From Candidatus Moraniibacteriota bacterium (GTDB taxonomy: Bacteria; Patescibacteriota; Minisyncoccia; Moranbacterales; UBA1568), in contig CP064975.1 in the NCBI GenBank assembly GCA_016699425.1, forward strand, positions 130,979 to 194,978: a stretch of 64,000 nt of DNA, given 5' to 3'. A program made the position numbers and the translations under genes. Each line of letters begins with the position of its first letter. Position 1 is the first letter of the stretch. The notes beneath the pieces are model-generated. The model did no database searches and was not told the DNA's origin. It was given only the letters and a program-made list of their open reading frames with translations. Of this stretch, positions 4,824-43,861 are shown one piece after another.

Positions 4824-4873
4824 AAAGAACAGTATTCTTTCAGCTCTAACCTAACCTTTAATCTCTTACTCCT

Positions 4874-5413
4874 ATGAACTTGTGGCATGATGTGAAACTT
4901 GGCGACAATGCCCCCGAGGAGATCAATGTCATCATTGAGATTCCCAAGGGCTCGCCCAACAAGTATGAAATCGACAAGGAAACCGGGCTGATCAAGCTCG
5001 ACCGCGCCAATTATTCAGCGGCGCCGTACCCGTTTGATTACGGTTTTGCGCCGCAAACGCTCTGGGACGATGGTGATGCGCTCGATGTCATCGTGCTCTC
5101 GACCTTCCCGCTCGCGCCCGGCATCCTCGTGAATGCCCGGCCAGTCGCTATCATGGAGATGATCGACGGAGGGGACTCTGACTACAAGGTGATCGCGGTG
5201 CCGGTTGACGATAAGCGCTGGGATGATGTGAAAGACCTGAAGGATGTAAACACGCACAATTTGAAAGAATATCAGCACTTCTTCGAGACCTACAAGGTTC
5301 TGAAGGGGAAGAAGAACGAGGTCGCGGTTCACGGTTTCAAAGGCCGCAAGGATGCGCTGGCTGCCGTGAAGCGTTCGGTGAAGCTCTATGCGAAGGAGTT
5401 TGGGAAGAAGTAA
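4874..5413 (+). CDS. ppa: Inorganic pyrophosphatase (family I)
   Basis: EINVIIEIPKGSPNKYEIDKETGLIKLDR...YGFAPQT...DGDALDVIVL core motifs and the right size (179 aa). Confidence 0.9.
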   Translation: MNLWHDVKLGDNAPEEINVIIEIPKGSPNKYEIDKETGLIKLDRANYSAAPYPFDYGFAPQTLWDDGDALDVIVLSTFPLAPGILVNARPVAIMEMIDGGDSDYKVIAVPVDDKRWDDVKDLKDVNTHNLKEYQHFFETYKVLKGKKNEVAVHGFKGRKDALAAVKRSVKLYAKEFGKK

Positions 5414-9080: not shown

Positions 9081-10361
9081 TTAGGGGTGGATCTTCTTAT
9101 AATCGCGCCACTGCTTCTCCGACCAGCCTTTCGGTTTCGTGGTGTAGTTCGGTTCATCACCCGGATGTGGGAAGAGACTCGGCGACTTGTAATTACTCCA
9201 GAACATATCATCGATGAGCGTATTGCCCGAGGCATCCTTCACCGTGTGGGTGAAGACGGTCTTCATACTGCCATCTGGGTGGCTTTCGAGGATATGCGGC
9301 CCATCGATGGTGACGGTGCGGCCATCTCGGGTGCCATACATGGAAAAGGTGAGGAGGGTGCCGTTTATTTCTGGCACGAGGAGGATGGTTCCGGGGGTGT
9401 TGTTGGTGAACTTCAGGTCCGGCCGGGGGACATAGACGGTCGCATCCATGCCATAGGGCTTGTAGTACTGGACGGGGTAGGCGTGGTTCCGGCGTTCGGT
9501 GATTTTCAAACCAGATTGGAGGGCAGCGCGGAAGACCGTCGTCGAGACTTGGCAGATGCCGCCACCGAATTCCGGCTCGGTCTTGTTGTTTTTGATGACG
9601 AGTTCAGGGAGATAGCCGTGTTCGCCGTCGACTTCTCCGAGATGATCGACGAAGGAGAAAGTCGCGCCAGGCTCAATAATGACACCGTCGAAGTCTTGGA
9701 TGGCGCGAGTGATGTTGTAGATGCGATTTTTCGGCGAACCACGGAAGTTCGTCGTGGCCGTCCCGATGAGCTCGGTGATGCCAAGGCTAGAGAGTGTTTC
9801 GGCCGAGACTTTGGCTGACGTGACGATGCTCGGGAGCCGGATGGTCAGGGTGGCCTGTTGAGCGGAGCGAAGAGCAGATTCCAATTGGGCCAGACTCGCT
9901 TCGATGTCTACTGTGATGCCATTTTCTGCGGGTACGGCGATGGCGACCGAGGCGTCTTGGACAGTGAGGCGAGCATCTTTCGGGTCGCGGTCGGCTTTGT
10001 CGGCGAAGCTCTCGATACTCATCCTCAGTCGATCAGGGAGGAGTTCGAGCGAATGAGCCAGGACGATGTGACTGCGAGTGGCGCGCGAGAGAAAGGCGTC
10101 GCAGAAACTCGGGAGCGGATCACAAGCCCGAGTCGTATCCTCAAACTCAGGCGACTTTCCTGGTTCGTAGGTGAGATGCGTCTTATCGGTATACCAGGAA
10201 AGGACCTCGGTGTGGTCCATAATCTGGACGAAGGCATCAGTTTGCAGGGTCAGGTCATCCGGAATCGTGAATGCTCGGACAATTCCGGGACAAAGAAAAA
10301 CAAGAGCAACAAAAGGTGCCGCATACAACAGCTGAAGATACCGAACAACGCGAATGGGCAT
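9081..10361 (-). CDS. VanW-family protein with N-terminal TM anchor
   Basis: Conserved VanW core (GATFSFVDHLGE...GGGICQVSTTVFRAALQSGLKITERRNHAYPVQYY). Confidence 0.8.
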   Translation of the reverse strand: MPIRVVRYLQLLYAAPFVALVFLCPGIVRAFTIPDDLTLQTDAFVQIMDHTEVLSWYTDKTHLTYEPGKSPEFEDTTRACDPLPSFCDAFLSRATRSHIVLAHSLELLPDRLRMSIESFADKADRDPKDARLTVQDASVAIAVPAENGITVDIEASLAQLESALRSAQQATLTIRLPSIVTSAKVSAETLSSLGITELIGTATTNFRGSPKNRIYNITRAIQDFDGVIIEPGATFSFVDHLGEVDGEHGYLPELVIKNNKTEPEFGGGICQVSTTVFRAALQSGLKITERRNHAYPVQYYKPYGMDATVYVPRPDLKFTNNTPGTILLVPEINGTLLTFSMYGTRDGRTVTIDGPHILESHPDGSMKTVFTHTVKDASGNTLIDDMFWSNYKSPSLFPHPGDEPNYTTKPKGWSEKQWRDYKKIHP

Positions 10362-10368
10362 GCGATAA

Positions 10369-10941
10369 TTAGAAACCTCTCACCTGGATCTTCTTTGTTT
10401 TGGTCGTATCAGCCTTGGGGAGACGAATCGTCAGAATGCCGTTCTTCAGTGCCGCATCAGCCTTTTCGGGGATGACATCGACAGGGAGGAGGACTGAGCG
10501 GGAAAAAGAACCCCAGTAGCACTCCTGGTAATAGTAGTTGCCGCTCTCGACGATTTCCTCGTTCTTGCGCTCGCCTTTGACGGTGACCATGTCGTTGTTG
10601 ATAGAGACATCGAGGTCCTCGGGCTTTACCCCGGCGATGGTCGACTTGATGACGATGTCGTTTTCCGTCTGGTAGACATCGATAGTGAGCTGCCCCTCGG
10701 CATTGTCATCGGCCATGCTGCCGCCACCCGTATAGGATGGGGTGCTCCAGGACGGCTCTTCTGGTTCGGGAGCATAGGTTGGCTCGGTATTCATCTGGAG
10801 CGGTGTTTCTTCTTCTTGGGCGTAGACGCTGACACTCTCCTCCTTGTAGGAAGGAGAACCATCAAGTTCGCGTGCGCCGGTGAGTCGTTCAAAAAAAGAG
10901 CGTTTCTGTTTCATGGTGGTGCTGTTTAATTGGTATTGCAA
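10369..10941 (-). CDS. Hsp20/alpha-crystallin family small heat-shock protein (probable true start at the internal Met, about 10914)
   Basis: Alpha-crystallin domain (QLTIDVYQTENDIVIKSTIAGVKPEDLDVSINNDMVTVKGERK...GSFSRSVLLPVDVIPEKADAALKNGILTIRLPKA). Confidence 0.8.
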   Translation of the reverse strand: MQYQLNSTTMKQKRSFFERLTGARELDGSPSYKEESVSVYAQEEETPLQMNTEPTYAPEPEEPSWSTPSYTGGGSMADDNAEGQLTIDVYQTENDIVIKSTIAGVKPEDLDVSINNDMVTVKGERKNEEIVESGNYYYQECYWGSFSRSVLLPVDVIPEKADAALKNGILTIRLPKADTTKTKKIQVRGF

Positions 10942-10998
10942 TACTCCTAGTATAGAGGAAGCCTGGCCACTCCGGCAAGAAGCCCGGGCATACCGCCC

Positions 10999-11436
10999 TT
11001 AGAGCGAGGAATTATAGAGGGTGTGAACCAGGATGGCTCCGAGGAGACCGACGAGTGGACTCAGGCTATAGCTTTCCTGGAGCCGGAGGCCACTGTAGAT
11101 GATCAGGGTGCCGAGGAGGTGAATACCGGCCATCGCCCCGAGGCTTGTAGGCTCGGAGAGAGCGGATGATGAGAGCATGACGAGGGCGATCTCAGCCGAG
11201 ACGAACCCGAGACCGAAGAGAGAGGCGTGGAGCCAGGATAGGGTATCCGGTGAACGTTTCCCGAGCTGGAGGAGAAACGCGAGCTTGGCTCCTTCTTCGA
11301 GCGTGGCGGCCCCGACGAGGAGGATGAGCGATGGTGCGTTCGTCAGTGGTGTGGTGAGAAACAGCGAGAAAAACACCTGAGCGAGGAGAGCGGCGGTGGC
11401 CGCAAAGAAACCAAAGATGAGTGCGAGGATGGGCAT
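10999..11436 (-). CDS. Hypothetical integral membrane protein (4 TM)
   Basis: 145-aa hydrophobic ORF whose start overlaps the valS stop, suggesting an operon. No motif recognised. Confidence 0.5.
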   Translation of the reverse strand: MPILALIFGFFAATAALLAQVFFSLFLTTPLTNAPSLILLVGAATLEEGAKLAFLLQLGKRSPDTLSWLHASLFGLGFVSAEIALVMLSSSALSEPTSLGAMAGIHLLGTLIIYSGLRLQESYSLSPLVGLLGAILVHTLYNSSL

Positions 11437-14102
11437 TATGAGGAGAGTTCTTGGATGGACTGAGAGAGGGTGATGAGCTTTGCCTCAGCGGTGGCGAGTG
11501 AGGTGCGCTGAGCAGAGATGATATTTTCCGGAGCCTTTTCGGTGAAGCCAGCGTCGGCGAGACGAGTCTTCAATCCAGCAATATATTTTCTGAGTTCGGC
11601 GGTTTCTTTTTCGAGCCGCGCTTTTTCAGCGGCGACATCGATCACATCACCGAGATGGACGAAGGCCCGGAGGCCGCCAGCGATGATACTGGCGCTCGCA
11701 GCCGGTCGGGCAGCGACAGCATCGGTGATGAGAACTTCAGCGACTCGGCCGAGACGTTCGATGATGGGCGTAAACGGCGTGAGTGTCACTGCATCGCCGA
11801 TGAGGGTCAGCGAAAGTGTTTCTTTCGGATCGATATGGTAGACGGCACGGACATTGCGGATTTTCTGGATGAGGTCGATGATGGTGAGAAAGTTGCCGGT
11901 CGGGGCAGAGTCTGGCTGATGTGGGGCTGCTGGCGTGTTCCAGCGCTGAACCATCAGCGGATACTTCTCGTTCGGGTAAAGCGATGTGTACAAGGCCTCG
12001 GTCACGAATGGCATGAAGGGATGCCAGAGCTTCAGGAGCTCATTGAAGACATGGACGAGGACAGTATCATGTTTTTCGATCTTGTGGATCTCGATATACC
12101 AATCGGCGAATTCATTCCACGTGAAGTCCCGCAGCGTTTCGGCTGCGAGCGAGATGTTGTAGGTGTCGAGTCGTTGAGAGACCGTGCTCCGGACTGTCTC
12201 GAGTCGCTCAAGTATCCATGTATCGGCAGGCGAGAGATGTCCGGACAGCCGAGCAGGTTGGTCCCAGCAGATGCTTTCGGGTGTGACCGAAGAGGTGAGG
12301 TAGCGCCCCATGTTCCAGAGCTTGTTCACGAAATTTCGCATCGCGATGGTCTTCTCAGTGGAGAGCTTCAGATCGTTTCCGGGAGTTGATCCGACGACTA
12401 AAGCTAAGCGGAGCGCATCGGCGCCGTTTTCGGCGATCACATCGAGGGGGTCAACGATATTGTCGAGAGACTTCGACATCTTGCGACCTTGCTCATCGCG
12501 CACGAGACCGTGGAGATAGACGGTCTGGAACGGGGCCTTCCCGAAGAAGTACTCGGACATGAGTATCATCCGCGCCACCCAGAAGAAGAGGATATCATAG
12601 GCGGTTTCAAGGAGTACAGTGGGGTGATAAGTCTTGAGATCCACGGCGGATTCGTCGGGCCAGCCGAGGGTGGAGAATGTCCAGAGTCCCGACGAGAACC
12701 AGGTGTCGAGTGTATCGGGGTCTTGCTGCCAGCCATCACCATCGGGCGCTTCGATCCCACAATACGTTTCATTACCGCGATACCACACTGGGATGCGGTG
12801 ACCGAACCAGATCTGGCGGGAGATACACCAGTCGCGGAGGTTGTCGATCCAGTGGAAATAGATTTTCTCAAAACGTTCAGGGAGGATGTCGACGGCTTTC
12901 GAACGTACCGCATCCTGCATGAGCGTCTTCAGGGTGACGGTCCGTCCCGCTCGTTCGAACTCTTTATTCACCGCGACGAACCACTGTCGCTTGATCTGTG
13001 GTTCGATCACGCCACCGCCGCGGCTATTGATGGCGACATTGTGGACATAGTCGGCTTCCGTCTTTACGACTAGTCCTTTGGCGATGAGCGCAGCGATGAT
13101 CTGTTCCCGCGCTTCGGCGATCGGCAGACCGGAGAATTCTCCGGCGATCGCGAGGAGCTTTCCGTCTTCACCGATGATTTGTTCTCGGTCGAGCCCATGG
13201 CGTTCGGCGATGTCGAAGTCGGTGTGGTCATGCCAGGGGGTGATAGTCATCACGCCAGTGCCAAAGGCCATGTCGATGACGGTGTCCTTCACGATCGTCG
13301 CCTCGATCGGGCCATTGATCCACTCGACGGTGAGTTTCTGGCCATCAGCATAGGCCGCATAGCGTTCGTCGTCCGGATGCATGACGACATATTTGTCGCC
13401 GAATTTTGTCTCAGGCCGGGCGGTCGAGATCACGAACGGTCCGTATTGCAGATAGTAGAAGGGGATCTTTTCCTCTCGCCACTCGATCTCGTCATCTGAG
13501 ACGGTGGTCTGGAGGTTCGGGTCCCAGTTCACGATGCGGTTGCCGCGGTAGATGAGACCGTCGTCATACATGCGCTTGAAGGCGGTGCGCACCGCGAGAC
13601 TGCGCTTATCATCGAGCGTATAGGCTTCGCGTGACCAGTCGAGCGAAGAGCCGAGCTTCTTCGTCTGGTGGACGATGGTGTCATGACTCTCTTGGGCAAA
13701 TGCCTCGACTCGGCGGAGGAGCTCTTCGCGGCCGAGGTCGTGGCGGGTCTTGCCCTCGGTCTGGTAGATGATTTTTTCGACTTTGCTCTGGGTGGCGATG
13801 GCGGCATGATCGGTGCCGGGGACCCAGAGAGTGCGATAGCCCTGCATCCGTTTGAAGCGCACGATCAGGTCCTCGATGGCGAGCATGCAGGCGCTGCCGG
13901 TGTGGAGGGTCCCGGTGACGTTCGGTGGTGGGAGGACGATAGAAAATGGCTCGGCATCGGCGGCCGTTACGCCACTCGTGACACAGGTGTCGGGATTGAA
14001 AAAGCCGCTCTTCTCCCAGCGGGCGTAGAGGCGGTCTTCCCACGCTTTGGGGTCATAGGCTTTGGGGAAATCGGTTGTCGCTGATTCATCGGACATATCC
14101 AA
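11436..14102 (-). CDS. valS: Valine--tRNA ligase
   Basis: 888 aa with a class I aaRS core (PPPNVTGTLHTGSA HIGH-like motif, KMSKSLDN), an editing domain and a C-terminal coiled coil. Confidence 0.95.
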   Translation of the reverse strand: MDMSDESATTDFPKAYDPKAWEDRLYARWEKSGFFNPDTCVTSGVTAADAEPFSIVLPPPNVTGTLHTGSACMLAIEDLIVRFKRMQGYRTLWVPGTDHAAIATQSKVEKIIYQTEGKTRHDLGREELLRRVEAFAQESHDTIVHQTKKLGSSLDWSREAYTLDDKRSLAVRTAFKRMYDDGLIYRGNRIVNWDPNLQTTVSDDEIEWREEKIPFYYLQYGPFVISTARPETKFGDKYVVMHPDDERYAAYADGQKLTVEWINGPIEATIVKDTVIDMAFGTGVMTITPWHDHTDFDIAERHGLDREQIIGEDGKLLAIAGEFSGLPIAEAREQIIAALIAKGLVVKTEADYVHNVAINSRGGGVIEPQIKRQWFVAVNKEFERAGRTVTLKTLMQDAVRSKAVDILPERFEKIYFHWIDNLRDWCISRQIWFGHRIPVWYRGNETYCGIEAPDGDGWQQDPDTLDTWFSSGLWTFSTLGWPDESAVDLKTYHPTVLLETAYDILFFWVARMILMSEYFFGKAPFQTVYLHGLVRDEQGRKMSKSLDNIVDPLDVIAENGADALRLALVVGSTPGNDLKLSTEKTIAMRNFVNKLWNMGRYLTSSVTPESICWDQPARLSGHLSPADTWILERLETVRSTVSQRLDTYNISLAAETLRDFTWNEFADWYIEIHKIEKHDTVLVHVFNELLKLWHPFMPFVTEALYTSLYPNEKYPLMVQRWNTPAAPHQPDSAPTGNFLTIIDLIQKIRNVRAVYHIDPKETLSLTLIGDAVTLTPFTPIIERLGRVAEVLITDAVAARPAASASIIAGGLRAFVHLGDVIDVAAEKARLEKETAELRKYIAGLKTRLADAGFTEKAPENIISAQRTSLATAEAKLITLSQSIQELSS

Positions 14103-14211: not shown

Positions 14212-15243
14212 CTAATCGATGGACCCCCGGCCGCCCCTCGAATACGTCTTAAGGAACCCGCCCAGACCGCCTCTTTTTTGCTTGAGGAGTCCATCTAAGT
14301 ATGTTCGAAGCTCAAGACGCAGCGGGGTACCGAGTCGTTCGCCAGCGATTCGATTCGTTTTCCACACGATACCGAACAAGCGCATCGTACCGAATATGGT
14401 GTCAGCTGTATCGTCTGACGTCGCCTCCTCCAGCGGCTTTGCGAGCCCGTAGTCAACGAGCAACTGCCACACCGGCTTCATGAGCCCGATTTCCATAAGC
14501 GCTGCCTGATACTTACGCTTCAGTTCCTCGACAGCCTGGGGTACGACCTCCTGCAAAGGAAGTCCCGGACGAGTACCGCCGATGATCCGATCCATTTCCA
14601 AAAAAGCGTTGGTCATGTCTTCGGACTGCTGCAACAGCAGGGCATGATCGCTTGCCAAGAGCCTCGCCCGCTGCTCCAAACCTACACTTGCTTCGGAGTT
14701 AGCTGCCAGAAGCGGCATGAGGATCTTGAGTACGGCTTCTGCCGACTCCTGTTCCTCTTGCTTCACCGCTGCCGCCTTGACGTCGTCAGCTGAAACATCA
14801 CCCATGAGGTACTGGCACAAGAGATCACCGTCCGGGACGTACGGTCCGTTGGTATATCCCTGTCCTGTGTGGTATTCTTCCCCGTCAATAGTGACGGAGA
14901 GTACTCCATGGTCGTAGACCTGACCTATCCGGCCGATCGGCGACACCCACATAGTATCGCCGTCTGCTTTGAACATGGGCACACCTTCTGCTGGATCTTT
15001 GACCGATGATATGCCGATGAAACACCCACGACGACGAGGCTTCTCATCAATCCACACAGCAACAATCCCGGCCTTGTCCGGATGAACCGTAAACATCGAC
15101 ACCGGAACACGTCTTTGGGTACTGACCGGCATACTTGACCCAAGGACAGTGACGCTCTCCACACCTCTCATTAACGAAATTGGAATCCCGGCGCCTGATT
15201 TAACCGACGTCATGGGGATAACAAGATTCGTGCTAGGTCTCAT
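14212..15243 (-). CDS. Hypothetical protein
   Basis: 343-aa ORF with even composition and no recognised motifs. Confidence 0.5.
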   Translation of the reverse strand: MRPSTNLVIPMTSVKSGAGIPISLMRGVESVTVLGSSMPVSTQRRVPVSMFTVHPDKAGIVAVWIDEKPRRRGCFIGISSVKDPAEGVPMFKADGDTMWVSPIGRIGQVYDHGVLSVTIDGEEYHTGQGYTNGPYVPDGDLLCQYLMGDVSADDVKAAAVKQEEQESAEAVLKILMPLLAANSEASVGLEQRARLLASDHALLLQQSEDMTNAFLEMDRIIGGTRPGLPLQEVVPQAVEELKRKYQAALMEIGLMKPVWQLLVDYGLAKPLEEATSDDTADTIFGTMRLFGIVWKTNRIAGERLGTPLRLELRTYLDGLLKQKRGGLGGFLKTYSRGGRGSID

Positions 15244-18058: not shown

Positions 18059-18415
18059 TTACTGATCTTGCTGATCGAGTTTGACCGCGGCCTCAGGCGT
18101 CGAGACGCTCATGCTCATGACGAGGAGCTTGATGATACCCCAGGCGACGACGAAATATACGAACATCGCGAGGATAGTCGTCCACTCAAAGACACTGCCT
18201 TGGGCCTTGGAAACTCTGAAGACCGTCGCAAACGGCGCGGTGAACGGTGCCGTCACCATGTAGATGAAACTGGTGAACCCGGCTCCAGCATTGGCACCGA
18301 GGAGTTTCAGCACGAGGCGGAAAGCGAGAAGCACCTCGACCAGACCGAGGATATACCAGACGATCTGGGTCCCGCGGTAGAGGGGGCGAGTGCTGCTGGA
18401 TGACATGGCATCCAT
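18059..18415 (-). CDS. YggT-family membrane protein (tentative)
   Basis: 118 aa, two TM helices and topology typical of the YGGT family. The assignment rests on pattern only. Confidence 0.45.
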   Translation of the reverse strand: MDAMSSSSTRPLYRGTQIVWYILGLVEVLLAFRLVLKLLGANAGAGFTSFIYMVTAPFTAPFATVFRVSKAQGSVFEWTTILAMFVYFVVAWGIIKLLVMSMSVSTPEAAVKLDQQDQ

Positions 18416-18573
18416 AAGGGTGAGACTAATAATTACATACCAACGGTCCGAAAAGCACAGCTTTGGTCCATAGGGTGATGTAATTAAAAGGTTCTCTTGG
18501 TACCTCTAGTATACTCTTTTTTGGCGAAAGAAGTAGCGAGTGTTTAAGCTGTCTCTTGAGGCATTGGAGTCAT

Positions 18574-18607
18574 AAAAAAATTCAAGGCGTAAGATTGCTC
18601 TTACGCC
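18574..18607 (-). terminator. Rho-independent terminator (GGCGTAAGA-GCAA-TCTTACGCC followed by TTGAATTTTTTT on the minus strand)
   Basis: Nine-bp perfect stem followed by a U-tract, directly downstream of the secreted-protein gene. Confidence 0.7.
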
Positions 18608-18630
18608 CTGTAGTACGTGGACGATGTCCG

Positions 18631-19044
18631 CTATTTTCCGCTGAGGATCTCCGCGATCCGCGCTCGACCTTTAGCTTCGGTGGCCTTGGCCCGCTCGTGT
18701 TCGGCGGTCATGGCGTGGAAGCGCTTCTTGGAAGTGAAGAAGACGACACCGCTCGGGCATGGCGCGCCGAATGCCTGTCCCGGGATGCTGTAGCGGACCA
18801 GGACCAACTCCTCACCGCCTTCGCTCATGAACCCTACGGCGGTCACTTTGCCGGTCTCGTTGATAGAACAAGTTTCCCCGTAGGAAAACTCGTTGTTACC
18901 GCTTGCTACGGGTTCCGGATTCAGGACCTTGACCCACTCGTGGCCGGGGACCTTGGCTACGTCGCCTTTCTTGATGACTGCTTGTGCCGAAGCGATGGAA
19001 GCAAAGGCCCAGAGCACTGCGGTAATAAAGAACTTGGCTATCAT
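18631..19044 (-). CDS. Secreted hypothetical protein (signal peptide; the ORF extends to 19080 with an upstream Met)
   Basis: MIAKFFITAVLWAFASIASAQA signal peptide followed by a ~115-aa domain. Confidence 0.5.
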   Translation of the reverse strand: MIAKFFITAVLWAFASIASAQAVIKKGDVAKVPGHEWVKVLNPEPVASGNNEFSYGETCSINETGKVTAVGFMSEGGEELVLVRYSIPGQAFGAPCPSGVVFFTSKKRFHAMTAEHERAKATEAKGRARIAEILSGK

Positions 19045-19152
19045 GGAAACCTCCAGTAAGTTGTGTCTAGTGGTAATCACCAGACTCCATATACTAGCAC
19101 ACTTTTAACTCCCTGTCCAGTTGAAAATAGTCCTAGAAAAGCCTCGATTCTG

Positions 19153-19177
19153 TATATTTTCCGTAGCCCCAAGGGGA
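19153..19177. repeat. attR-like partial copy of the tRNA-Glu 3' end (left island boundary)
   Basis: 15/15 identity with 25274-25288, then 6/10 matches over the next 10 nt. Confidence 0.55.
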
Positions 19178-19275
19178 GTTTCGCCTTGCTGTCTGCTGAC
19201 AGCTTCGTTGTCCTGGGCAGCGCTGAATGCTCACTCGCATTCATCGACACTCGCCATGCCTTCACGGCAGGGCTC

Positions 19276-19296
19276 GCACCTGCCCGTTCGATTCCC
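19276..19296. repeat. Inverted partial copy of the tRNA-Glu T-arm/acceptor (CCCGTTCGATTCCCCTTGG)
   Basis: 16-nt exact match to the reverse complement of 25281-25296. This is an additional tRNA-derived scar at the island edge. Confidence 0.5.
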
Positions 19297-19511
19297 CTTG
19301 GTAAAAATACCAACAAAAAACACCGCTCCTCGCGGAGGGTGCTTTTATTGGTCACGTAGACCAAATAAGAAAGTCGTGGAATCAGATTATACCAGAGCTA
19401 AAGGAGTGGCAAACCCTTCAGAAGGAGGAAGTAGAATGCTCGGTATTGGCTTAATTACGCTTCCCCACTGCGGTCGCTAATCTACCCATAGGGAATAGAA
19501 ACGCCTAGAAA

Positions 19512-20222
19512 TCATCGACTTCTTAGTATCTCCTGTTTTTCAATCTTACTGGCTTCGGCGTTTTCTTCTAGTTCAGCGAGTATAATCTTCTTTTCTCGGT
19601 CAATTTCTTTCTTGTCTAGTTTTGGTCCTCTAGTCTTCAAGAAGACCGTCATTATTTTATTGCCTAGGGGTTTATCATACTTGATCTGTAAACGAACACG
19701 CGCCAGTAAAGTCACTATTTTATCCTGTAAGTGAATCAGAAAAGGTCGTAGCTGCTCATCAAGTGATCCAGCCAGCGATCCAACATTACTCCTGTAATCT
19801 TCTAGAGTTAGGTTCTTTTGAAGTAATGCTACACGAATCTCATCATACCCCTTTGATATATTCTCCACGTCATCATTTAACCTTCTTAAATCGTAGTGAT
19901 AAGCATAGAGTTCGTTCTTTAACGATAGATCGTACAGCATTTCGTAGTGAGATTTATCGATGGACAAGTAGCGCAGATGTTCAAAAGTAACATTATTTAT
20001 CTTGATAGCCGCTACAAACCGGCCTATTGTAAACAGATTATCTTGAATTACAGCCCCGTCTTCGAGGAGCTGCATCTCAAGACTTACTAAGGAGTTATAG
20101 TGTCTGACTTGTCTCTCATAAAGCTTTGTGAAGAACTCTGCTAGGCGCAAAAAAAGAAAAGCAAAAAAAGCTCCAGAAAATGCACTTATCATACTGAAAG
20201 CTATGTTGGATTCCATAGTCAA
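19512..20222 (-). CDS. Island cassette gene 4: hypothetical protein with N-terminal TM helix
   Basis: 236 aa, AT-rich codon usage, one N-terminal TM followed by a predicted coiled-coil/soluble domain. Its start overlaps the stop of the upstream gene by 4 nt. Confidence 0.55.
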   Translation of the reverse strand: MTMESNIAFSMISAFSGAFFAFLFLRLAEFFTKLYERQVRHYNSLVSLEMQLLEDGAVIQDNLFTIGRFVAAIKINNVTFEHLRYLSIDKSHYEMLYDLSLKNELYAYHYDLRRLNDDVENISKGYDEIRVALLQKNLTLEDYRSNVGSLAGSLDEQLRPFLIHLQDKIVTLLARVRLQIKYDKPLGNKIMTVFLKTRGPKLDKKEIDREKKIILAELEENAEASKIEKQEILRSR

Positions 20223-20497
20223 TCCCGTGTCTCTTTACAAATATATAGCCCCAGTTCTTTATCTTGGATCTTACACTTATAACCACATTCAAAAGTAGCA
20301 TTAGGTAAAGAGCGCTTAGAAAATTCGAAGCCCGCCAGACATTCTTCGAAAGACTCGTAAGAGTCTATGGCTTTGATAGCTTCTTCTGCTAACTCGCCAT
20401 TCGGATATACGAACAAAGACCATCTATCCTTCTGCAGGAAAGAAATTAAGAACCCTACGCCAATGACGATAAAGGCTACAACAAAAAACTTTTGCAT
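20219..20497 (-). CDS. Island cassette gene 3: small Cys-containing membrane-anchored protein (92 aa)
   Basis: N-terminal TM (FFVVAFIVIGVGFLISF) followed by a small domain with four Cys. Translationally coupled to its neighbours. Confidence 0.5.
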   Translation of the reverse strand: MQKFFVVAFIVIGVGFLISFLQKDRWSLFVYPNGELAEEAIKAIDSYESFEECLAGFEFSKRSLPNATFECGYKCKIQDKELGLYICKETRD

Positions 20498-20509
20498 AGA
20501 AGAAGGCTC

Positions 20510-20692
20510 TTAGCAGGCGGTAGTATAAGTAGATACCTCACCCTCCTTAATCTCAAGGGCTATTCGTCTTAACTCGGTAATCTCTTCTGCCTCTTCTCTT
20601 GTTACCTCTTCGGAAACTGCAGTATCTCTAAGGCTATCTTCCTTAGTTACCTCATCAAGTTTAGTGAATATGATACTAAAGTCTCTACTCAT
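20510..20692 (-). CDS. Island cassette gene 2: small acidic protein (60 aa)
   Basis: Glu-rich 60-aa ORF whose start overlaps the protease gene stop (ATGA). Confidence 0.4.
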   Translation of the reverse strand: MSRDFSIIFTKLDEVTKEDSLRDTAVSEEVTREEAEEITELRRIALEIKEGEVSTYTTAC

Positions 20693-21843
20693 ACGATTTT
20701 CTTTTTTGTTTGTGATTCTAGTTGCTGACGTAAATTACCCAGATCAATTTCTTTCTTACACGAAGGACACTTAATTTTATTGTCTGCTGGAAACTCTATA
20801 GTTCCAGCCTCCAGAGGCCTTTTCTGATCGAAGTCCACTTGAATTTTTGAAGTGTGATTACAGTTCTGGCACTTAGCTTCGACAACTGCTCCGTTTGCTT
20901 GAGCCGGATTAACGTTTGTATTTTGAGCTAAGAACCGATAAATCTGAGAATCTACTGTTTCGATTACCTTGTATATACTCGTTGAACTAAAGGTCATTTC
21001 TAGCAGGGTATAGTACCTTAGAATAGCTTCTTCTAATTCGGTCCCGGTGTAATCATTTATCTTCAGCTTCATTGAAGCTAAGTCTTGTATCTTGAGAGAC
21101 TTAGCGTGAGTTTTCCATCTAGAATGGTCGCTCAGACTTTTAGCAATCTCCTCAGCTCTTTTTTCCTTCTCTTCAGGTGTTACGGGTCGTCCGTCAGAAG
21201 AATGTGTCGTCCAGTCTTTGAACTTATATTTAACTAACCACTCCTTCACTAAAACTCGAGCAAACTCCATAGCATTCTGAGCGTTTTGAAGTTCTCCTGG
21301 AGATATATTCTGGAGAATAGGAACGTAGGCACGATTCAATATACCTGTTTCCAAGACTTCTTTCTTAATCTTTTCCATCCCTTCTAATAAAGCATCTGCA
21401 GAGAATTGCTTATTCTGGGCAAGCATTTGAGCATCAATTGGCCCAAGGCTGGATAGCGATCCCATTAATATTTCGTCTCCAGAAAGAGCGATGATGGTTC
21501 CGGCGCTTTTTGCGTAGCCAGGGATAATAACGGACACCTCTTCATACTTCCCTCGCAATAATCGGACAATATCTTCTGCCACCTCGCCAGAACCACCGGG
21601 AGTTTCTAAAATAAGATCAAGCTTTTTACCTTTTAGATTTGAAAGCTGATCACTTACTGGTAATAGATCAGCATAGCCAATAGCTATAAGGTTGGTTTGC
21701 TTGTTAAGATCGGCAGCATACACTAAAACATCCCTATTCCCTCTAAGGCTAGATATTTTTTGCAATTGCTTCTTCCTTTCCAGAGAAAGAGCCTCTAGGT
21801 TGGAAGCAATATTCATATTCAGATATTCGCTATAGTAGCCCAT
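20689..21843 (-). CDS. Island cassette gene 1: ClpP/S49-fold serine peptidase (SDH/prohead-protease-like) fused to a C-terminal CxxC...CxxC zinc ribbon
   Basis: LDLILETPGGSGEVAEDIVRLL...IIPGYAKSAGTIIALSGDEILMG matches the ClpP/SppA-type nucleophile context. The C-terminus has CQNC...CPSC. Confidence 0.6.
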   Translation of the reverse strand: MGYYSEYLNMNIASNLEALSLERKKQLQKISSLRGNRDVLVYAADLNKQTNLIAIGYADLLPVSDQLSNLKGKKLDLILETPGGSGEVAEDIVRLLRGKYEEVSVIIPGYAKSAGTIIALSGDEILMGSLSSLGPIDAQMLAQNKQFSADALLEGMEKIKKEVLETGILNRAYVPILQNISPGELQNAQNAMEFARVLVKEWLVKYKFKDWTTHSSDGRPVTPEEKEKRAEEIAKSLSDHSRWKTHAKSLKIQDLASMKLKINDYTGTELEEAILRYYTLLEMTFSSTSIYKVIETVDSQIYRFLAQNTNVNPAQANGAVVEAKCQNCNHTSKIQVDFDQKRPLEAGTIEFPADNKIKCPSCKKEIDLGNLRQQLESQTKKKIV

Positions 21844-22239
21844 TCTGATTTCTTTAAGTCAAGTTGATTTTAGCACTTTTTAAGCATCTAAAAAATAGAT
21901 TAAATTATCATTGAAATCATAGGCTTTGTAAAGTCATTTTTCAAAAACTGAAAAAATTATGGGGGACGTATTATACCGTATATCAGAGATCTGTTTTTAA
22001 TCCACCCCCCTCACCCCTGTAGCTCCTGTGGAATTTGAATGATCCAAAAAACCAGTTTTTTAATTAAAGAAATGGGGAGGATGTATTAGCTAAGATCTAA
22101 TCGCTAGGCCCATAACAAAGAAGTTACCTAGCAAAAGGATAAAGGCCCTGATATAAAGCTTCTTTAACAATTACTACTCTAACCTTGAACGCAGAAGCAA
22201 GCGAACACATAAACGCTTGAAGCGAACTCTGTTTCGCTT

Positions 22240-22386
22240 CTAGTTATTGTCCTTAGACACTCTTTTTCTTTCTTCTAACCAGTGGCATACAAGCCAAATA
22301 CCACCAATGATAAGCGTCAGTAAGCCTACGACGCGCAAGAGGTTGTCAAACCATACCGAGAAACTAACGGTCCCTAGTTCTTCCAT
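22240..22386 (-). CDS. Candidate 48-aa hydrophobic peptide (MEELGTVSFSVWFDNLLRVVGLLTLIIGGIWLVCHWLEERKRVSKDNN) in the island non-coding spacer
   Basis: ORF found by hand (below the 60-aa cut-off of the ORF track) with a single TM helix. No clear SD. Confidence 0.2.
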   Translation of the reverse strand: MEELGTVSFSVWFDNLLRVVGLLTLIIGGIWLVCHWLEERKRVSKDNN

Positions 22387-22622
22387 AAACAGTACTTAAT
22401 GCTTAGGCTCTCCACATCGGACGCAAAACAAAAGGACGCCCGACTGGTTAGCCACGTTCGGTGTCCTTGCGGAAGCCTACTTATGACGTCGAGCGCCCCT
22501 TTCAGGCCACAAATAGGCCAAAAAAGACGCAAAGACGTCTAATTTCCGCAAAAACACAACGTAGCTAACCACCTTGATATTATCTTTTAAAAAGTCTTAA
22601 ATCAAGGTTAGGGGGATTTCTT

Positions 22623-23264
22623 ATGAGAATGAGTATGATACTGGACACCAGGAAAGCTTTTAATGCTGGCCGTTTTCAAAGCCAAGAGGAGTTCCTTGCC
22701 TTTCTGCTCGGCGATACACTGTACGAGCACAGAAATATTTATTTTCAATGCGATAGCCAGATCTATTATTCTATTGAGGAGAGCCTACGTGATAAAGAAA
22801 GGAAGAGATGTTTCCGCGTGGAAGTCTCTAGGCTAGAGGGCTATACCGGATATTTTTTTCTGACAAATATCAGCAGAACAGCCCTAGAGAAGAATGATTC
22901 CGAATGGCCGAAAGCAAAGATTAATCGAAGCCTGAAAAACGAGGCTCTAATGTTTGATACAGAAAAGTCATTGATCGCGGGGAAGACTGCCGTTAGTAAA
23001 ATCAAACCTAATACTAAGGAGAATGGGCTTTGCGTCTTTTTGTTTAAGCAGAAGACAGACCACTTTGTTGATTGGTCTCTCTTTATGGAGCACTGCACTG
23101 GGAGTGAGTACAATATGACAAAAGATGACAAAGCAAAAAATAACAGTGACAAGAAGATGATTAAAGATACTATCGATCGAATAAACAAAAGGGTTCAGAA
23201 GGACTTTGATGTAACGGATGAACTGTTTCAGTTCGAGAGAAATTGTATCAAAAGAAACTTTTAG
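22623..23264 (+). CDS. Island hypothetical protein (213 aa)
   Basis: AT-rich ORF upstream of and co-directional with the recombinase. No motif recognised. Confidence 0.5.
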   Translation: MRMSMILDTRKAFNAGRFQSQEEFLAFLLGDTLYEHRNIYFQCDSQIYYSIEESLRDKERKRCFRVEVSRLEGYTGYFFLTNISRTALEKNDSEWPKAKINRSLKNEALMFDTEKSLIAGKTAVSKIKPNTKENGLCVFLFKQKTDHFVDWSLFMEHCTGSEYNMTKDDKAKNNSDKKMIKDTIDRINKRVQKDFDVTDELFQFERNCIKRNF

Positions 23265-23343
23265 ATAAGCCAAAAATCTTTTGTCGGAAGTGAGTCACGG
23301 GGGTAAGGCGTAGAGTTGGGGCATAAAACCTCAACTCTTTTTT

Positions 23344-23583
23344 ATGCAGGACAATCACTTTTCTACTTCTGACTTTTACCTAGCCGCCTATTGTGTCGCC
23401 CAAGGGATGAAGATAGCAGGTATCAGCCGGAGCGGATCCGGTAAGGCAACTTTTCTTTTGGAGGGTGCGCCAAAAGGAAGAGAACTAATGAAAGAGTTCT
23501 TATTTAGTGACCCGAATGTAGAGGCCAAGCGTTTTGTTTCGGCAATCAAGGAACTGAAGCAATTACTTTATTCGGTAGCGTAG
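23344..23583 (+). CDS. Island small protein (79 aa), possible recombinase accessory or directionality factor
   Basis: Small basic protein immediately upstream of the serine recombinase. The functional call rests on position only. Confidence 0.35.
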   Translation: MQDNHFSTSDFYLAAYCVAQGMKIAGISRSGSGKATFLLEGAPKGRELMKEFLFSDPNVEAKRFVSAIKELKQLLYSVA

Positions 23584-23587
23584 CGTG

Positions 23588-23764
23588 ATGATCTCCATTG
23601 AAAGATGCCGACAACTAGTACCTGATCTCAAAAATCTCTCTGATGAAGAGGTTATTGAGATTAGAGAGAATCTCTATGAGGCAGGCTTGCTTGCTTTAGA
23701 GGTTTGGGCCGAAGAGAATAGTGGTTCCAAAAATCCCCCTTGGGTATTGCCCGCCAGGCCTTAA
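23588..23764 (+). CDS. Island small protein (58 aa; MISIERCRQLVPDLKNLSDEEVIEIRENLYEAGLLALEVW...)
   Basis: Hand-found ORF between the 79-aa gene and the recombinase. It is acidic, helical and tightly packed against its neighbours. Confidence 0.3.
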   Translation: MISIERCRQLVPDLKNLSDEEVIEIRENLYEAGLLALEVWAEENSGSKNPPWVLPARP

Positions 23765-23788
23765 GGAGTACCATAGTAGTAAACAAAA

Positions 23789-25312
23789 ATGAGTATGAAA
23801 AGTTCTGATACAAAAACTGGGATTATATACTGCCGAGTGTCTTCACTGGAGCAAGTGGAGGGCACAAGTCTTGGAACGCAGGAGAAGATCTGTCGCGAAT
23901 ACGCCAACAAAGAAGAGATCAAAATCCTTAAGGTATTTGTAGAAAAAGGAGAATCTGCAAAAACAGCTAATAGAACAGAGTTTAATAAAGCCATCGCTTT
24001 TTGTGCAGACAAGAAGAATCAAACAACTTTCTTCATTGTTCACAAAGTAGATAGGTTTGCGCGTAACCAGGACGATCACGCCATTGTAAGGAGTAGCTTA
24101 AAACGTCTAGGTGTTGAGCTAAGATCAGCGACCGAGCCAATCGATGAGACTCCTATGGGGCGTTTTATGGAAGGGGTCTTGTCGGCCACTGCAGAGTTTG
24201 ATAATAGTGTCCGTTCAATTCGTACCACACAAGGTATGAAAGAACGTCTCAAAAATGGCATCTGGGTATGGCAAGCCCCACTTGGGTACCACAGACCCTA
24301 CAGGGGTTCAAATCTCTTTCCTGAACCAAATATAGCCCCTCTCATTAAGCTAGGGTTTGAGGAATACTCAAAAGGAACCTACACCTACGAAAAGCTTGCC
24401 TTGTTTCTTTCTGAAAGGGGTCTTAGATCTAGAGCCGGAAAAGCTATCACTCCTCAGTTAATGGAGAAAATCATAAAGAACCCTCTCTATTGTGGAGTCA
24501 TCAAAACCTGGGGTGAGTCCGAGGGAGCTTTCGAGCCCATCATATCGAAGGAGTTATTTTTCAAGTGCCAGCCGGAAGGCATAAGATCAGCACAACCGAA
24601 TCCGCGCTCACTCAATAACCCTCTTTTTCCGTTAAGGCGTTTCATACAGTGTAGCAACTGCGAAACACCTCTTACAGGTAGTACGTCGAAAGGCAGGGAC
24701 GGGAAAGGGTATCCATACTATCATCATCACCATAAGGGCTGTGAGGAGGCTAAATCTGTACCCAAAGAAGCTTTCGAGCAGCTCTTCATCCAATTTTTAG
24801 ATGATATTTCTCCGGATGCAAAGTATGAGAAGCTTTTCAAGGCTATTGTTCTGGATATTTGGAAGAATAACTATAAGAGAATTGATGAGGAAAATGCCAA
24901 AATAAATAGAGCTGTTACTGCTTTAGAGAAGGATAGACAAAAAATCTTTGATCTCCATCGTTCTGGAAAGTATTCCGATGAAGACTTTGATGAGCAAAGG
25001 AAACTAATCTCTGTAAAGATAAATCAGAAACGACTCCTACTAAGGGAGAAATGGGATGAAGAGTTTGAAATGGAAAAAGTTTTAGACTACTGCTTTATCT
25101 ATGTTCGAAACAGTGCTGAGGCGTGGAAGAAGGCCCGGTATGAACGAAGAATAAGACTACAGAAGCTAGTCTTCGCCGGAAGGATAGATTATGACGGAAA
25201 GAAACTTGGAACCACCGAATTACGGCAGATCTATCGGATAAATCAGGCATACCAGTCTGATAAATCCTCTTTAGTAGCCCCAAGGGGAATCGAACCCCTC
25301 TTACCAGGATGA
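23789..25312 (+). CDS. Large serine recombinase (integrase)
   Basis: N-terminal resolvase catalytic domain (IIYCRVSSLEQ with the catalytic Ser, KVDRFARN), a recombinase domain and a C-terminal Zn-ribbon region (CSNCETPL...HHHHKGC). The last 38 nt are tRNA-Glu sequence. Confidence 0.85.
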   Translation: MSMKSSDTKTGIIYCRVSSLEQVEGTSLGTQEKICREYANKEEIKILKVFVEKGESAKTANRTEFNKAIAFCADKKNQTTFFIVHKVDRFARNQDDHAIVRSSLKRLGVELRSATEPIDETPMGRFMEGVLSATAEFDNSVRSIRTTQGMKERLKNGIWVWQAPLGYHRPYRGSNLFPEPNIAPLIKLGFEEYSKGTYTYEKLALFLSERGLRSRAGKAITPQLMEKIIKNPLYCGVIKTWGESEGAFEPIISKELFFKCQPEGIRSAQPNPRSLNNPLFPLRRFIQCSNCETPLTGSTSKGRDGKGYPYYHHHHKGCEEAKSVPKEAFEQLFIQFLDDISPDAKYEKLFKAIVLDIWKNNYKRIDEENAKINRAVTALEKDRQKIFDLHRSGKYSDEDFDEQRKLISVKINQKRLLLREKWDEEFEMEKVLDYCFIYVRNSAEAWKKARYERRIRLQKLVFAGRIDYDGKKLGTTELRQIYRINQAYQSDKSSLVAPRGIEPLLPG

Positions 25313-25346
25313 AAACCTGGCGTCCTAACCGATAGACGATGGGGCC
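25275..25346 (-). tRNA. tRNA-Glu (anticodon TTC); its 3' end is overlapped by the serine recombinase ORF
   Basis: Acceptor GGCCCCA/TGGGGCT, D-arm GTCT-ATCGGTTA-GGAC, anticodon stem CCAGG/CCTGG, loop TTTTCAT, T-arm AGGGG-TTCGATT-CCCCT. Confidence 0.8.
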
Positions 25347-25554
25347 GTCCTGCGCTAAAGCTTCGGAACGGCAAGCCTTCAATAGAGACGAAAAAAGCCT
25401 CTAGAAAGGCATGGCTACTGTATCATACGGGATGATTTTGGCAAGCCACTAAGAGCGATGAGAGAGCAGAGTTGACAGCAATCGTATACCGTGATACACT
25501 CCACAAGTTATTTTGGTTCCTTTTTCAACAGCAAGACCTCAAGGGGGGTAGAAG

Positions 25555-25797
25555 ATGCAGGAAATAATTCAGCAGGTGAACCAGCTGGCGATGCTGGTCG
25601 GCTACGGGGTTTTCGTAGCGGGTGCCGGGTACATCGCCTGGCAGGCAAATCGAGCCTTGGCTCGCCGCCGTAAGAGGAGGCTTGCCAGTGCTCCGCTGGA
25701 AACAGTACTCTTCAACCCGTTCGGAGAGCAAGAAATTCCTCTCGGGACCGAAAGCTGGGGAGCGGCGGCTGCAATGCAGAGCCAGACGAACAACTAA
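25555..25797 (+). CDS. Small membrane protein (80 aa)
   Basis: SD AAGGGGGGTAGAAG upstream of the ATG. One TM helix (LAMLVGYGVFVAGAGYIAW) and a basic stretch. Confidence 0.45.
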   Translation: MQEIIQQVNQLAMLVGYGVFVAGAGYIAWQANRALARRRKRRLASAPLETVLFNPFGEQEIPLGTESWGAAAAMQSQTNN

Positions 25798-25875
25798 ACG
25801 CCAGTCAGAACTAGAAGGCTGGCAAGACAAAGATCCCTGCTACGCATTGCGCGGCAGGGGTCTTCACTTTTTTAC

Positions 25876-41979: not shown

Positions 41980-42268
41980 ACTGCATTGTTGACTAGATAG
42001 CACATGGGTGCTATTTTTTCTTTTCATTAACAACAGGAGATTTTCATGGACAGGGAATGGGACTGGTGGGTGAAGTCATTTATCTTGCTTCCGATCGAAC
42101 AAGGCCGGAAAGACTTGGAAACGCGACCCAATCGCGGTGAGGCGGCACGAGTTCAGGTTGGGGACATCATCTGTTTCAACCGGTCTGTCCGTCGACGAGT
42201 CATCGCAATCCGGCACTACCAATCGTTCAAAACGATGCTTGTGGTTGAAAAGTCTGAACGTTTCTATC

Positions 42269-43473
42269 GTTACCGTTACCTTTTCAGTTGATAGTAGGGC
42301 GCTTTTTTTCAAAAAGTTTTACTGCTTCTACGCCTAGTTTTACTAATGTCTCAGGCCAGCGAGCCTGTTTTTTGATACTCAAAGAGAGTGAAGGGTAACC
42401 GTTCAAATATTTAAATTTAGCTTCACAATCTGTAAAAAGGCTTGGTTCTCCTCCGTATCATCCACGCATTCAACCAACACTGAGCCGAAGCAAAACTCTG
42501 AAAACCCTTGATCGTCTTCAGCCTCCCATTGAGATGGGAATTGTAGAGTTCAATGAGATTGGTGTTGTTGGGACAGCCTGGCAGCAGCAAGTAATTGAAG
42601 AGTTCCTCCTGCCGGTACGCTATCTCACTTACGATGTTTTTGAGCAGACGTTTCTCTCTCTTGATGCTCGCGGCAAAAGATCGAATGGCGTTCGTCACAT
42701 CCTCTCGTTCTCCAAACACGCTCTCCTTGAGAGCGTAAAAGAAGGGCCGGTATCGCTCTTCACTCCGCACCCGTAAAGCCACCCGGATATTCTCCAGGTA
42801 GTGGTTGTGGCAGAGCTGCAGCCGAGCCGACGGAAAAACCTTCAGGAGAGCCTTTTTCAGGCCAGAGCGGTCATCGGCGACCACGATCTGAAGATCATAG
42901 CCAAGTTGCTTCACTTGATGGAAGAAACGTGAGAAGGACACCTCATCTTCCGCTGTATACAAAGCCCCGAAGGGAATATCGTGGGTCAAGTAATCAATGC
43001 CGTAGAGAAAAGGAATCTTTCTCGCAAAGCCTTTGACCGCCACATACTTCCCATCCATGACAAGGATGCCCGAGAAGCGTCTCGGGTCACAGAGGGTTTG
43101 CGTCAGAGCGTCATTGGAAGGAAGTTGTGCTAATTCTCTTGTAACTCTCACGAAGGCTTGTTTTCCCGAGAGACCATATTCATCTCCTAATTTACGAAAC
43201 GGTACCCCATCAATATGCTCGATCCACAGCAGTCTCGGATCATGCCCGAAGTAACGAGAAAAAGAATGTTCACAAGCACGACACAGGTAGTGATGGCTGT
43301 AGCCTTGGGAGCCATTCTTCACCGTCTCACGACTGCTGCAGCGGGGACAGTGACGTGACCATTTTTTTTGACATGCTGAATGAAATTTAAGGCTTAAAGT
43401 CAACTTTACAGCCGGTTTGAGGCTCTAGTCTAACAAGAACAACACTTTCCATCAACTGAAAAGGTAACGGTAT
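42269..43473. mobile_element. Complete ~1.2-kb IS element with 22-bp terminal inverted repeats (TACCGTTACCTTTTCAGTTGAT) and a ~10-bp target-site duplication (CGTTTCTATC)
   Basis: The left repeat at 42271-42292 is the reverse complement of 43451-43472. The direct repeat CGTTTCTATC lies at 42259-42268 and 43474-43483. The element holds a single transposase ORF. Confidence 0.75.
42423..43403 (-). CDS. IS transposase with N-terminal zinc ribbon plus DDE domain (IS1595/ISNCY-like; family call tentative)
   Basis: CPRCSSRETVKNG...CRAC zinc ribbon. Candidate catalytic acidic residues in ILVMDGKYV, IVVADDRSG and HNHYLEN. Confidence 0.7.
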   Translation of the reverse strand: MTLSLKFHSACQKKWSRHCPRCSSRETVKNGSQGYSHHYLCRACEHSFSRYFGHDPRLLWIEHIDGVPFRKLGDEYGLSGKQAFVRVTRELAQLPSNDALTQTLCDPRRFSGILVMDGKYVAVKGFARKIPFLYGIDYLTHDIPFGALYTAEDEVSFSRFFHQVKQLGYDLQIVVADDRSGLKKALLKVFPSARLQLCHNHYLENIRVALRVRSEERYRPFFYALKESVFGEREDVTNAIRSFAASIKREKRLLKNIVSEIAYRQEELFNYLLLPGCPNNTNLIELYNSHLNGRLKTIKGFQSFASAQCWLNAWMIRRRTKPFYRL

Positions 43474-43861
43474 CGTTTCTATCCGGGCGCCACGAGAGAT
43501 GTCATTCTCGGAGCCCTCAGAGAAATGTATCGGACTGATCCCGAGCAGGGAGTGTTCTGCTTCGAACTCGAACGAATTAGTTAAGGGGGCATCATGTACC
43601 AATCGTGATGCCCTTTGAAATTTCGATTCTTGACAGAAATCCCAGAGGAGAGCCAAAAACTCCTGCCCGAAATGCGAAGTTCGTTTCAACTGAAAAATGA
43701 GTAAAGGTTTTTTCTTCAGGAGCAGGTTTCCCTAGAGTAGATTCGTATAACGTGGCAGGCGGGGCTTGCGCACTTCTAGATTTTGGCTTATTCTCGGGGC
43801 AAGGAGGCTGAGGTCTCCAAAAAGAATGAAACAATAAGCTAGAAAGAGAGGTGGAAAAATT

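Follow-up and report, generated by a model that had tools for sequence, protein, structure and literature searches.

A 64,000-nucleotide stretch of the genome of Candidatus Moraniibacteriota bacterium (assembly GCA_016699425.1, contig CP064975.1, positions 130,979 to 194,978; hereafter the window, whose numbering is used throughout) contains a 5.9-kb AT-rich island abutting a tRNA-Glu gene, and the subject here is this island together with the large serine recombinase (LSR) that it encodes. In its integrated state the LSR open reading frame (ORF) occupies 23789..25312 on the plus strand and specifies 507 aa, and it converges with an intact tRNA-Glu(UUC) gene on the minus strand, recognised at 25275..25346 by Rfam (58.9 bits) and at 25274-25346 by ARAGORN. 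At the left end of the island, on the plus strand at 19359..19454, lies the detached C-terminal tail of the LSR (DQIRKSWNQIIPELKEWQTLQKEEVECSVLA; tail codons 19359-19451, stop 19452-19454). Both ends carry the tetranucleotide GTAG. The attL core (19356..19359, plus strand), placed from the empty site of a relative designated L087 and the accompanying break in the alignment, has a chromosomal B arm to its left and the P' arm of the element to its right, and the attR core (25274..25277) corresponds to tRNA positions 74-71, the tRNA gene supplying the B' arm of attB. GC content is 0.409 inside the island (19360-25273) against 0.553 and 0.547 in the 10-kb flanks to the left and right, the fall beginning at about 19360 and ending at about 25270, and this is the sole strong dip of the window. 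A slight decrease was also seen at 42001-44000 (0.474 against about 0.54 around it). The original prediction for this locus had described an AT-rich block between GC-rich flanks, which the windowed computation bore out (0.41 against 0.55), and a recombinase ORF running into the tRNA, which is equally correct, the last 38 nt being antisense tRNA. It had also set the island at 19153-25346 (6.1 kb), which is too far to the left, as the composition shift starts at about 19360 and the true island is 5,918 bp (19360-25277), and it had overlooked that the recombinase is split by integration, with its tail at 19359-19451.

The assignment of the protein to the LSRs is based on Pfam, on sequence matches to PDB entries and on its homologues. 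The N-terminal catalytic domain (Resolvase PF00239, E 3.9e-31, residues 12-158) and the recombinase domain (Recombinase PF07508, E 3.5e-12) are both present, and Zn_ribbon_recom PF13408 scores 24.0 bits, below the cutoff of 25.3. In a family alignment of 51 homologues cysteines C288, C291 and C318 are invariant, as is the YCRVSS nucleophile motif. The PDB matches include the C-terminal domain of A118 integrase (4KIS, E 8e-6, residues 205-425), 3GUV and gamma-delta resolvase, and the AlphaFold2 model of a homologue (P0021) has beta strands at 282-309 followed by long helices at 340-387 and 393-419. The LSR is 100% identical to an NCBI protein, and the public record (protein P0002) gives it as 385 aa, without the catalytic domain, though the 507-aa ORF is intact. 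The shorter version is probably a gene-calling artefact tied to the tRNA overlap or to the choice of start codon, and for annotation the lesson is that gene callers mishandle recombinase genes of this kind. There was no Phage_integrase domain in any ORF of the island according to Pfam, and so no sign of the tyrosine integrase of a classical tRNA island.

The evidence that the recombinase gene has been divided comes from its two ends. Val496 of the LSR is the core codon GTA shared by both ends, and antisense tRNA-Glu encodes residues 497-507 (APRGIEPLLPG) together with the stop codon. At attL the translation of the tail is in frame with the corresponding Val codon, GTA at 19356-19358, and the tail is matched by a hidden Markov model (HMM) of such tails with an E value of 2.7e-8, on the LSR strand only. 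It comprises some 31 residues with the conserved pattern ..SWNQII.EL.EW.., the window copy ending in ..SVLA. Joining 23789-25277 to 19360 onward yields an uninterrupted ORF of 530 aa whose junction, ..KSSLV|DQIRKSWNQ.., agrees position for position with long homologues, and attP lies about 33 codons before the stop of the fused ORF. From this fusion a crossover is predicted within GTAG (19356-19359 / 25274-25277), together with an attB reading ..TTATTGGTCAC-GTAG-CCCCAAGGGGAATCG...; the reconstructed attP contains GATAAATCCTCTTTAGTAGACCAAATAAGAAAGTCGTGG, and the predicted junctions are ...CAGTCTGATAAATCCTCTTTAGTAGACCAAATAAGAAAGTCGTGGAATCAG... for the attP circle and ...GCTTTTATTGGTCACGTAGCCCCAAGGGGAATCGAAC... 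for the repaired attB. In the window the identity of attL and attR is limited to GTAG, and this matches what is expected of a serine recombinase.

An uninterrupted site was found in relatives, where the original prediction had proposed that one be sought. Neither the reconstructed attB nor a 56-nt piece of the tRNA had an exact match in the JGI metagenome contigs, and syntenic contigs were reached instead via homologues of the flanking GH1 glycosidase. In L087 (GCA_049645545.1), whose GH1 protein is 98% identical, the empty site reads ...TTATTGGTCAC GTAG CCCCAAGGGG..., exactly as the reconstructed attB. Window positions 18059-19365 align with L087 4307-3001 at 95.9% identity, and 25274-25372 align with L087 3010-2911, contiguous there with the left block; the alignment is thus interrupted at 19365 / 25274 and none of 19366-25273 occurs in L087. 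The site is likewise empty in L084-L086, whose GH1 proteins are 90% identical. As a relative with about 96% DNA identity in the left flank has the site uninterrupted, the island is an integrated element, and the L087 site sets its length at 5,918 bp and makes everything in 19163-19355 chromosomal. The chromosomal B arm at attL consists of a terminator-like hairpin (19318..19346, no strand assigned) plus TTATTGGTCAC; the hairpin stands between the element and a chromosomal structured unit described below, and in the empty site it lies directly 3' of tRNA-Glu. After integration this terminator-like hairpin of the tRNA is 5.9 kb away, so that transcription reading through from the tRNA, upstream of which there is a minus-strand promoter-like site at 25417-25444, would run antisense across the end of the LSR gene on its 3' side, a possible regulatory consequence of integration. 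A scan of the locus for promoters and terminators added nothing significant. The spacer between GH1 and tRNA-Glu (window 25372-25873; L084 11242-12306; L087 2258-2938) differs among these close relatives: in L084-L086 it carries an 80-aa GIY-YIG ORF that the window is without, and L087 has about 150 nt between the aligned blocks flanking the spacer against 12 nt in the window.

The element belongs to a large group. At least 885 proteins are LSR homologues at E<=1e-10, matches in species-representative genomes number at least 565, and a scan of such genomes yielded 80 loci, or 81 counting the window. The 120 best homologues are mostly 500-510 aa long and come chiefly from metagenomes; 105 of them end in the tRNA-type peptide ..KS.LV-APRG(I/V)EP.., which is the antisense tRNA acceptor/T-arm, and a further 10 are longer and end in the tail LV..V..SWNQ(I/L)..EL.EW..F. 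The LSR stop codon lies inside an antisense tRNA gene at 49 of the 81 loci, the targets being tRNA-Glu (37), Ala (3), Arg (3), Leu (2) and Lys, Pro, Ile and Met (one each), and the overlap with tRNA-Glu is nearly always 41 nt. The hosts include Patescibacteria, Acidobacteriota, Myxococcota, Melainabacteria and others. A detached tail was found 4.0-8.9 kb upstream of the LSR at 16 tRNA-integrated loci (tail HMM, E<1e-3), in all 16 on the strand of the LSR, the best match on the opposite strand being no better than E 0.7. The stretch common to attL and attR measures 4-11 bp in 15 sister elements, centred on (T)GGTAGCCC, the complement of the tRNA end GGGCUACC(A), and the Val codon stays in frame at the family cores. 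Comparison of the window core GTAG with the core TGACCC of L022 would confine the exchange to tRNA positions 73-71, provided that all members of the family cut alike. Two loci are more complex. L002 (1347-8089) has two LSR genes 3.6 kb apart, the first of 525 aa with a fused tail and the second, more distant in sequence, of 522 aa and extending 65 nt into antisense tRNA-Ala, and may be a tandem or composite element; L051 has an acidobacterial tail-fused LSR (9974-11542) with a near-identical detached tail 2.7 kb downstream (14275-14346), an arrangement for which a single integration does not account.

A relative of the element also exists as a free circle. Five independent assemblies or sequencing runs contain 4,644-nt contigs with 30-nt terminal overlaps (L170-L174), all derivable by circular permutation from a single 4,614-bp circle without any mismatch, and this circle carries a 527-aa tail-fused LSR that is 58% identical to that of the window. 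Also present on it are genes for a DUF2335 protein and for a secreted protein of 452 aa whose linker is rich in Pro and Thr. A further contig, L001, has a 54-nt terminal overlap with 2 mismatches, suggesting that it too is circular. With an empty site, a free circular relative and dozens of parallel insertions, the original view, in which a small integrative element with its cargo sits at the tRNA-Glu 3' end, has held, and the island and its mobility can be taken as established. It is very probable that 19360-25277 is a 5.9-kb integrative element, one of a large family whose insertion target is the 3' extremity of tRNA genes, in most cases tRNA-Glu.

What the sequences show is that the LSR recombined an attP inside its own ORF with an attB whose B' arm is the tRNA acceptor/T-arm and whose B arm is the downstream hairpin, the crossover falling within the shared 4-bp GTAG at tRNA positions 74-71; with the exchange inside GTAG, the body of the tRNA is unaltered. 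Integration divides the ORF, such that the catalytic and DNA-binding body (codons 1-496) now reads into the antisense tRNA and gains APRGIEPLLPG and a stop, while the conserved amphipathic tail is stranded at attL, 5.9 kb off, still in frame and on the strand of the LSR. Both ends would be rejoined into the 530-aa ORF by excision. What follows is our proposal. There would then be two isoforms, one of 530 aa in the episomal state and one of 507 aa in the integrated state, that report the state of integration, and the tail would be a functional peptide, perhaps for stability or the control of directionality, which might dock as a helix on the coiled-coil/zinc-ribbon region or serve as a degradation tag. 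For the last of these there is a weak hint in that Ala is the final residue (-LA, -IA, -VA, -AA) in about 11 of 38 LSR tails, above chance expectation, in a manner reminiscent of ssrA-like degradation tags. It is put forward tentatively, as something that may well prove not to be the case, that the isoforms differ in stability or reaction direction and that across the clade directionality is set partly by an enzyme C-terminus rewritten by recombination and not by a separate factor alone.

A number of points weigh against this scheme. The crossover dinucleotide is one that we infer. There is no recognisable replication gene on the 4,614-bp circle, which could be a transient excision product, and present activity of the window element is presumptive, the excised circle being that of a relative. 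The tail helix is placed in the structural model with low confidence: the tail of P0021 is predicted by AlphaFold to be helical with a predicted local distance difference test score (pLDDT) of about 70 dropping to about 40. Lastly, the invariant W-N codons (TGGAAY) overlap the putative motif of the P' half-site, and the conservation of the tail may partly reflect selection on DNA and not on protein. The P' and B' arms both start with GTAGCCC.AG, and a T-loop-like TGGAAYC stands at positions 22-28 of P', with GGGAATC at 12-18 and TCGAACC at 17-23 of B', so that offsets of 5 bp and 10 bp both fit an outward displacement of the P' motif; structural work on LI integrase bound to attP reportedly places the expected attP half-site motif 5 bp further out. 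The first nine or so tail codons probably double as a P' half-site, and the W-N codons, coinciding with it, are perhaps invariant under a double constraint.

Alternatively, the divided ORF might be a neutral by-product of an attP that overlaps the 3' end of the gene, the tail having no peptide function and being conserved through its P' site and through recent ancestry. The most conserved codons (S-W-N-Q) are indeed no more than about 28 bp from the core, in the expected LSR half-site zone, where they spell the T-loop-like motif, and tail lengths and C-termini are variable. The footprint of an LSR on attP is about ±25 bp, however, and conservation reaches past this: in 26 tails, in all of which W-N is invariant, hydrophobic residues continue at a heptad-like spacing to about codon 21, which is 60-66 bp from the core. 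The pattern is moreover amphipathic and codon-periodic, with entropies of 1.15, 0.94 and 1.44 at codon positions 1, 2 and 3, the second positions being the most conserved, and detached tails are still open and conserved across elements of different phyla. A neutral origin is possible, though we consider it less likely than not; the conclusion drawn from the alignments is that the tail appears to be under selection at the protein level.

Of the cargo, four ORFs lie on the minus strand in the left half of the island, namely one of 236 aa with no family match (19512..20222), two small ORFs of 92 aa and 60 aa with no significant family match (20219..20692) and one of 384 aa (20689..21843) with a ClpP-like, SDH-type serine protease domain (PF01972, E 6.5e-18), which also matches phrog_11747 (E 4.5e-56), a PHROG without assigned function. 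On the plus strand there follow a 213-aa ORF with no function assigned (22623..23264), a homologue of which (cluster 4) has the same position in element L013, a 79-aa DUF5659 protein (23344..23583; PF18903, E 1.2e-11), whose counterpart in L002/L003, matched by size and position, is also 79 aa, and a conserved ORF of 59 aa (23585..23764) directly upstream of the LSR. This last ORF belongs to cluster 1 (51-107 aa), which occurs in 10 of the 18 elements that were delineated, adjoining the LSR every time, and is the only widely common gene apart from the LSR, the remaining cargo being almost wholly different; judging by its position and distribution it may be a regulator, a directionality factor or an excision cofactor. 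PADLOC identified no defence genes in the cargo, the 384-aa ORF included.

As replication, capsid and transfer genes were not found, it could be argued that the island is the fixed, no longer mobile remnant of an old insertion. Against this, the LSR ORF is intact with its family-invariant residues, YCRVSS among them, and so is the detached tail; the att arms show no mutation with respect to the family consensus, and a relative with about 96% DNA identity in the left flank lacks the element, all of which makes immobility unlikely. A somewhat less likely origin still is a degraded prophage or phage satellite, for which there is the weak resemblance of the 384-aa protein to head-maturation proteases (phrog_1684, E 1e-8) and a GP3_package-like gene in the free relative L001. 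The only products of prophage, integrative and conjugative element (ICE) or integrative and mobilizable element relevance recognised by Pfam and PHROGs are the ClpP/SDH-like protease and the integrase; the same searches recognised no capsid, terminase (its large subunit included), portal, tail, relaxase/type IV secretion system, transfer or replication genes in the island, in line with the predicted lack of capsid and conjugation genes. The cargo differs almost entirely between elements, and IMG/VR holds no close relatives of the LSR, the best being at most 33% identical, so the elements are not catalogued viruses.

There is in addition a repeat at the locus that is misleading. The exact 15-nt sequence GTAGCCCCAAGGGGA is found twice, at 19163-19177 and again at 25274-25288, where chance would give about 0.01 matches and none of 100 shuffles gave two, and the original prediction had taken a repeat of the last 15-25 nt of tRNA-Glu for the att duplication bounding the island. 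The repeat is real and non-random, at 15 and not 25 nt, and the left copy with everything up to 19359 is kept in the empty site of L087, where it forms the 5' end of a chromosomal unit that is conserved and mimics the 3' end of tRNA-Glu. A crossover inside the tRNA-derived repeat (19163-19177 / 25274-25288) can accordingly be set aside with near certainty, because L087 retains 19163-19359 unchanged in its empty site, fusion there would leave the tail out of frame, 190 nt and a terminator-like hairpin away, most sister elements are without such a repeat and the GC shift starts at about 19360. Repeat-based island finders would misplace the boundary here on account of the neighbouring tRNA mimic.

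The structured unit itself (19163..19303, no strand assigned), which lies outside the element, is present in the empty sites of L087 and L084-L086. Its 5' end is the 15-nt repeat (antisense tRNA 3' end), and GTTCGATTCCCCTTGG at its 3' end reproduces in sense the T-loop and acceptor strand of the tRNA, of which a 16-nt inverted copy occupies 19286-19301. The unit has a GC content of 0.60 and folding z-scores of -4.5 and -5.4. Homologous units of about 130-180 nt adjoin tRNA-Glu in several Patescibacteria (L084-L087, for example L084 12418-12583; L023 6217-6395; L018 5117-5245; and three in L005, at 4922-5101, 5099-5258 and 11453-11637). Their 3' end copies the T-loop and acceptor strand of the local tRNA-Glu and covaries with it, their 5' end is complementary to that stretch, and there are compensatory changes at 9-11 base pairs in several helices, the alignment being supported to a similar degree when folded on either strand. 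No Rfam family was found for the unit, either in the window or in L005, and a tmRNA, a Y-RNA-like RNA or an intron-containing tRNA was unsupported by ARAGORN or Rfam. A miniature non-autonomous element mobilised by the LSR was also rejected, as the ends of the unit are B'-like and not P/P'-like and it is stably kept in the empty sites of relatives at 90-98%. In L005 (Moranbacteria GW2011_GWC2_37_8) an LSR element (4841-5350, 11440-11640) lies between two units and not at a tRNA, its LSR ending in 25 nt of tRNA-like sequence that belongs to the unit; the nearby tRNA-Glu is oppositely oriented and has an altered 3' terminus (..TTGGCGCGA). Insertion at the unit means that it is apparently able to serve as an alternative attB, and this suggests such a role for the units in general, possibly with an inversion at L005.

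The significance of the family lies partly in its range of targets. As far as we know, LSRs have been thought to avoid tRNA genes, and in the loci examined this clade is mostly at tRNA 3' ends, with many members in the Patescibacteria, whose mobile elements are poorly known. An attP inside the ORF would give two state-specific isoforms, through which a new way of controlling directionality or stability can be tested directly, and the tRNA-Glu acceptor/T-arm, as a highly conserved and ubiquitous target, is a possible tool that could enable landing-pad-free insertion into genomes. Compared with the large serine integrases of phages and ICEs (phiC31, Bxb1, A118/LI, TP901-1 and SprA of SPbeta), the enzyme is of the same family and has the same order of Resolvase and Recombinase domains, probably followed likewise by a zinc ribbon with an inserted coiled coil, and attP likewise adjoins the integrase gene and recombines with attB over a core of a few bp. 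Those integrases typically target protein-coding genes, whereas here attB is the 3' end of a tRNA gene, attP is within the recombinase ORF and the C-terminus is rewritten. Classical tyrosine-integrase tRNA islands resemble the element in that they too enter a tRNA gene at its 3' end, leave the tRNA intact and bring an AT-rich, variable cargo, but the element has no tyrosine recombinase, shares only GTAG in place of an att duplication of 15-76 bp, and has its int gene convergent with the tRNA and overlapping it.

The tRNA-targeting LSR family appears to be previously unremarked. A survey of integrative elements noted that no serine integrase had yet been reported to use a t(m)RNA gene and listed only 14 of 297 candidates, unverified (PMC7192596), a large catalogue of LSRs is without any mention of tRNA (PMC10083194), and the serine integrases of Mycobacterium abscessus prophages all insert in ORFs, with cores of 5-8 bp (PMC8092301). 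No description was found of a serine recombinase in which integration exchanges the enzyme's own C-terminus, within a coverage of the literature that is incomplete and no proof of absence. The nearest parallels in topology are the SSV-type tyrosine integrases of archaea, in which attP lies inside int and the gene is partitioned at a tRNA and restored by excision (PMC8371274). The attachment site in the recombinase gene, the tRNA target and the splitting and restoration of the gene are common to both, and it is only this topology that is shared: the SSV1-type enzymes are tyrosine recombinases of archaeal viruses that are split into two large non-functional parts, whereas here a bacterial serine recombinase exchanges a tail of only about 31 residues and its catalytic and DNA-binding body stays whole. 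A second parallel is the integration-dependent immunity of mycobacteriophages (BPs, Brujita, clusters G/N/P), in which attP lies in a phage gene, the C-terminus is swapped or truncated so that the protein behaves differently, and C-terminal degradation tags are involved (PMC4557955, PMC8092301). In both systems integration alters the C-terminus of the protein whose gene bears attP, and the ssrA-like tags of integration-dependent immunity have a possible counterpart here in the Ala-ending tails; there, however, it is the repressor that is split and the integrases are of the tyrosine type (PMC4557955; examples in PMC8092301), and here it is the recombinase itself.

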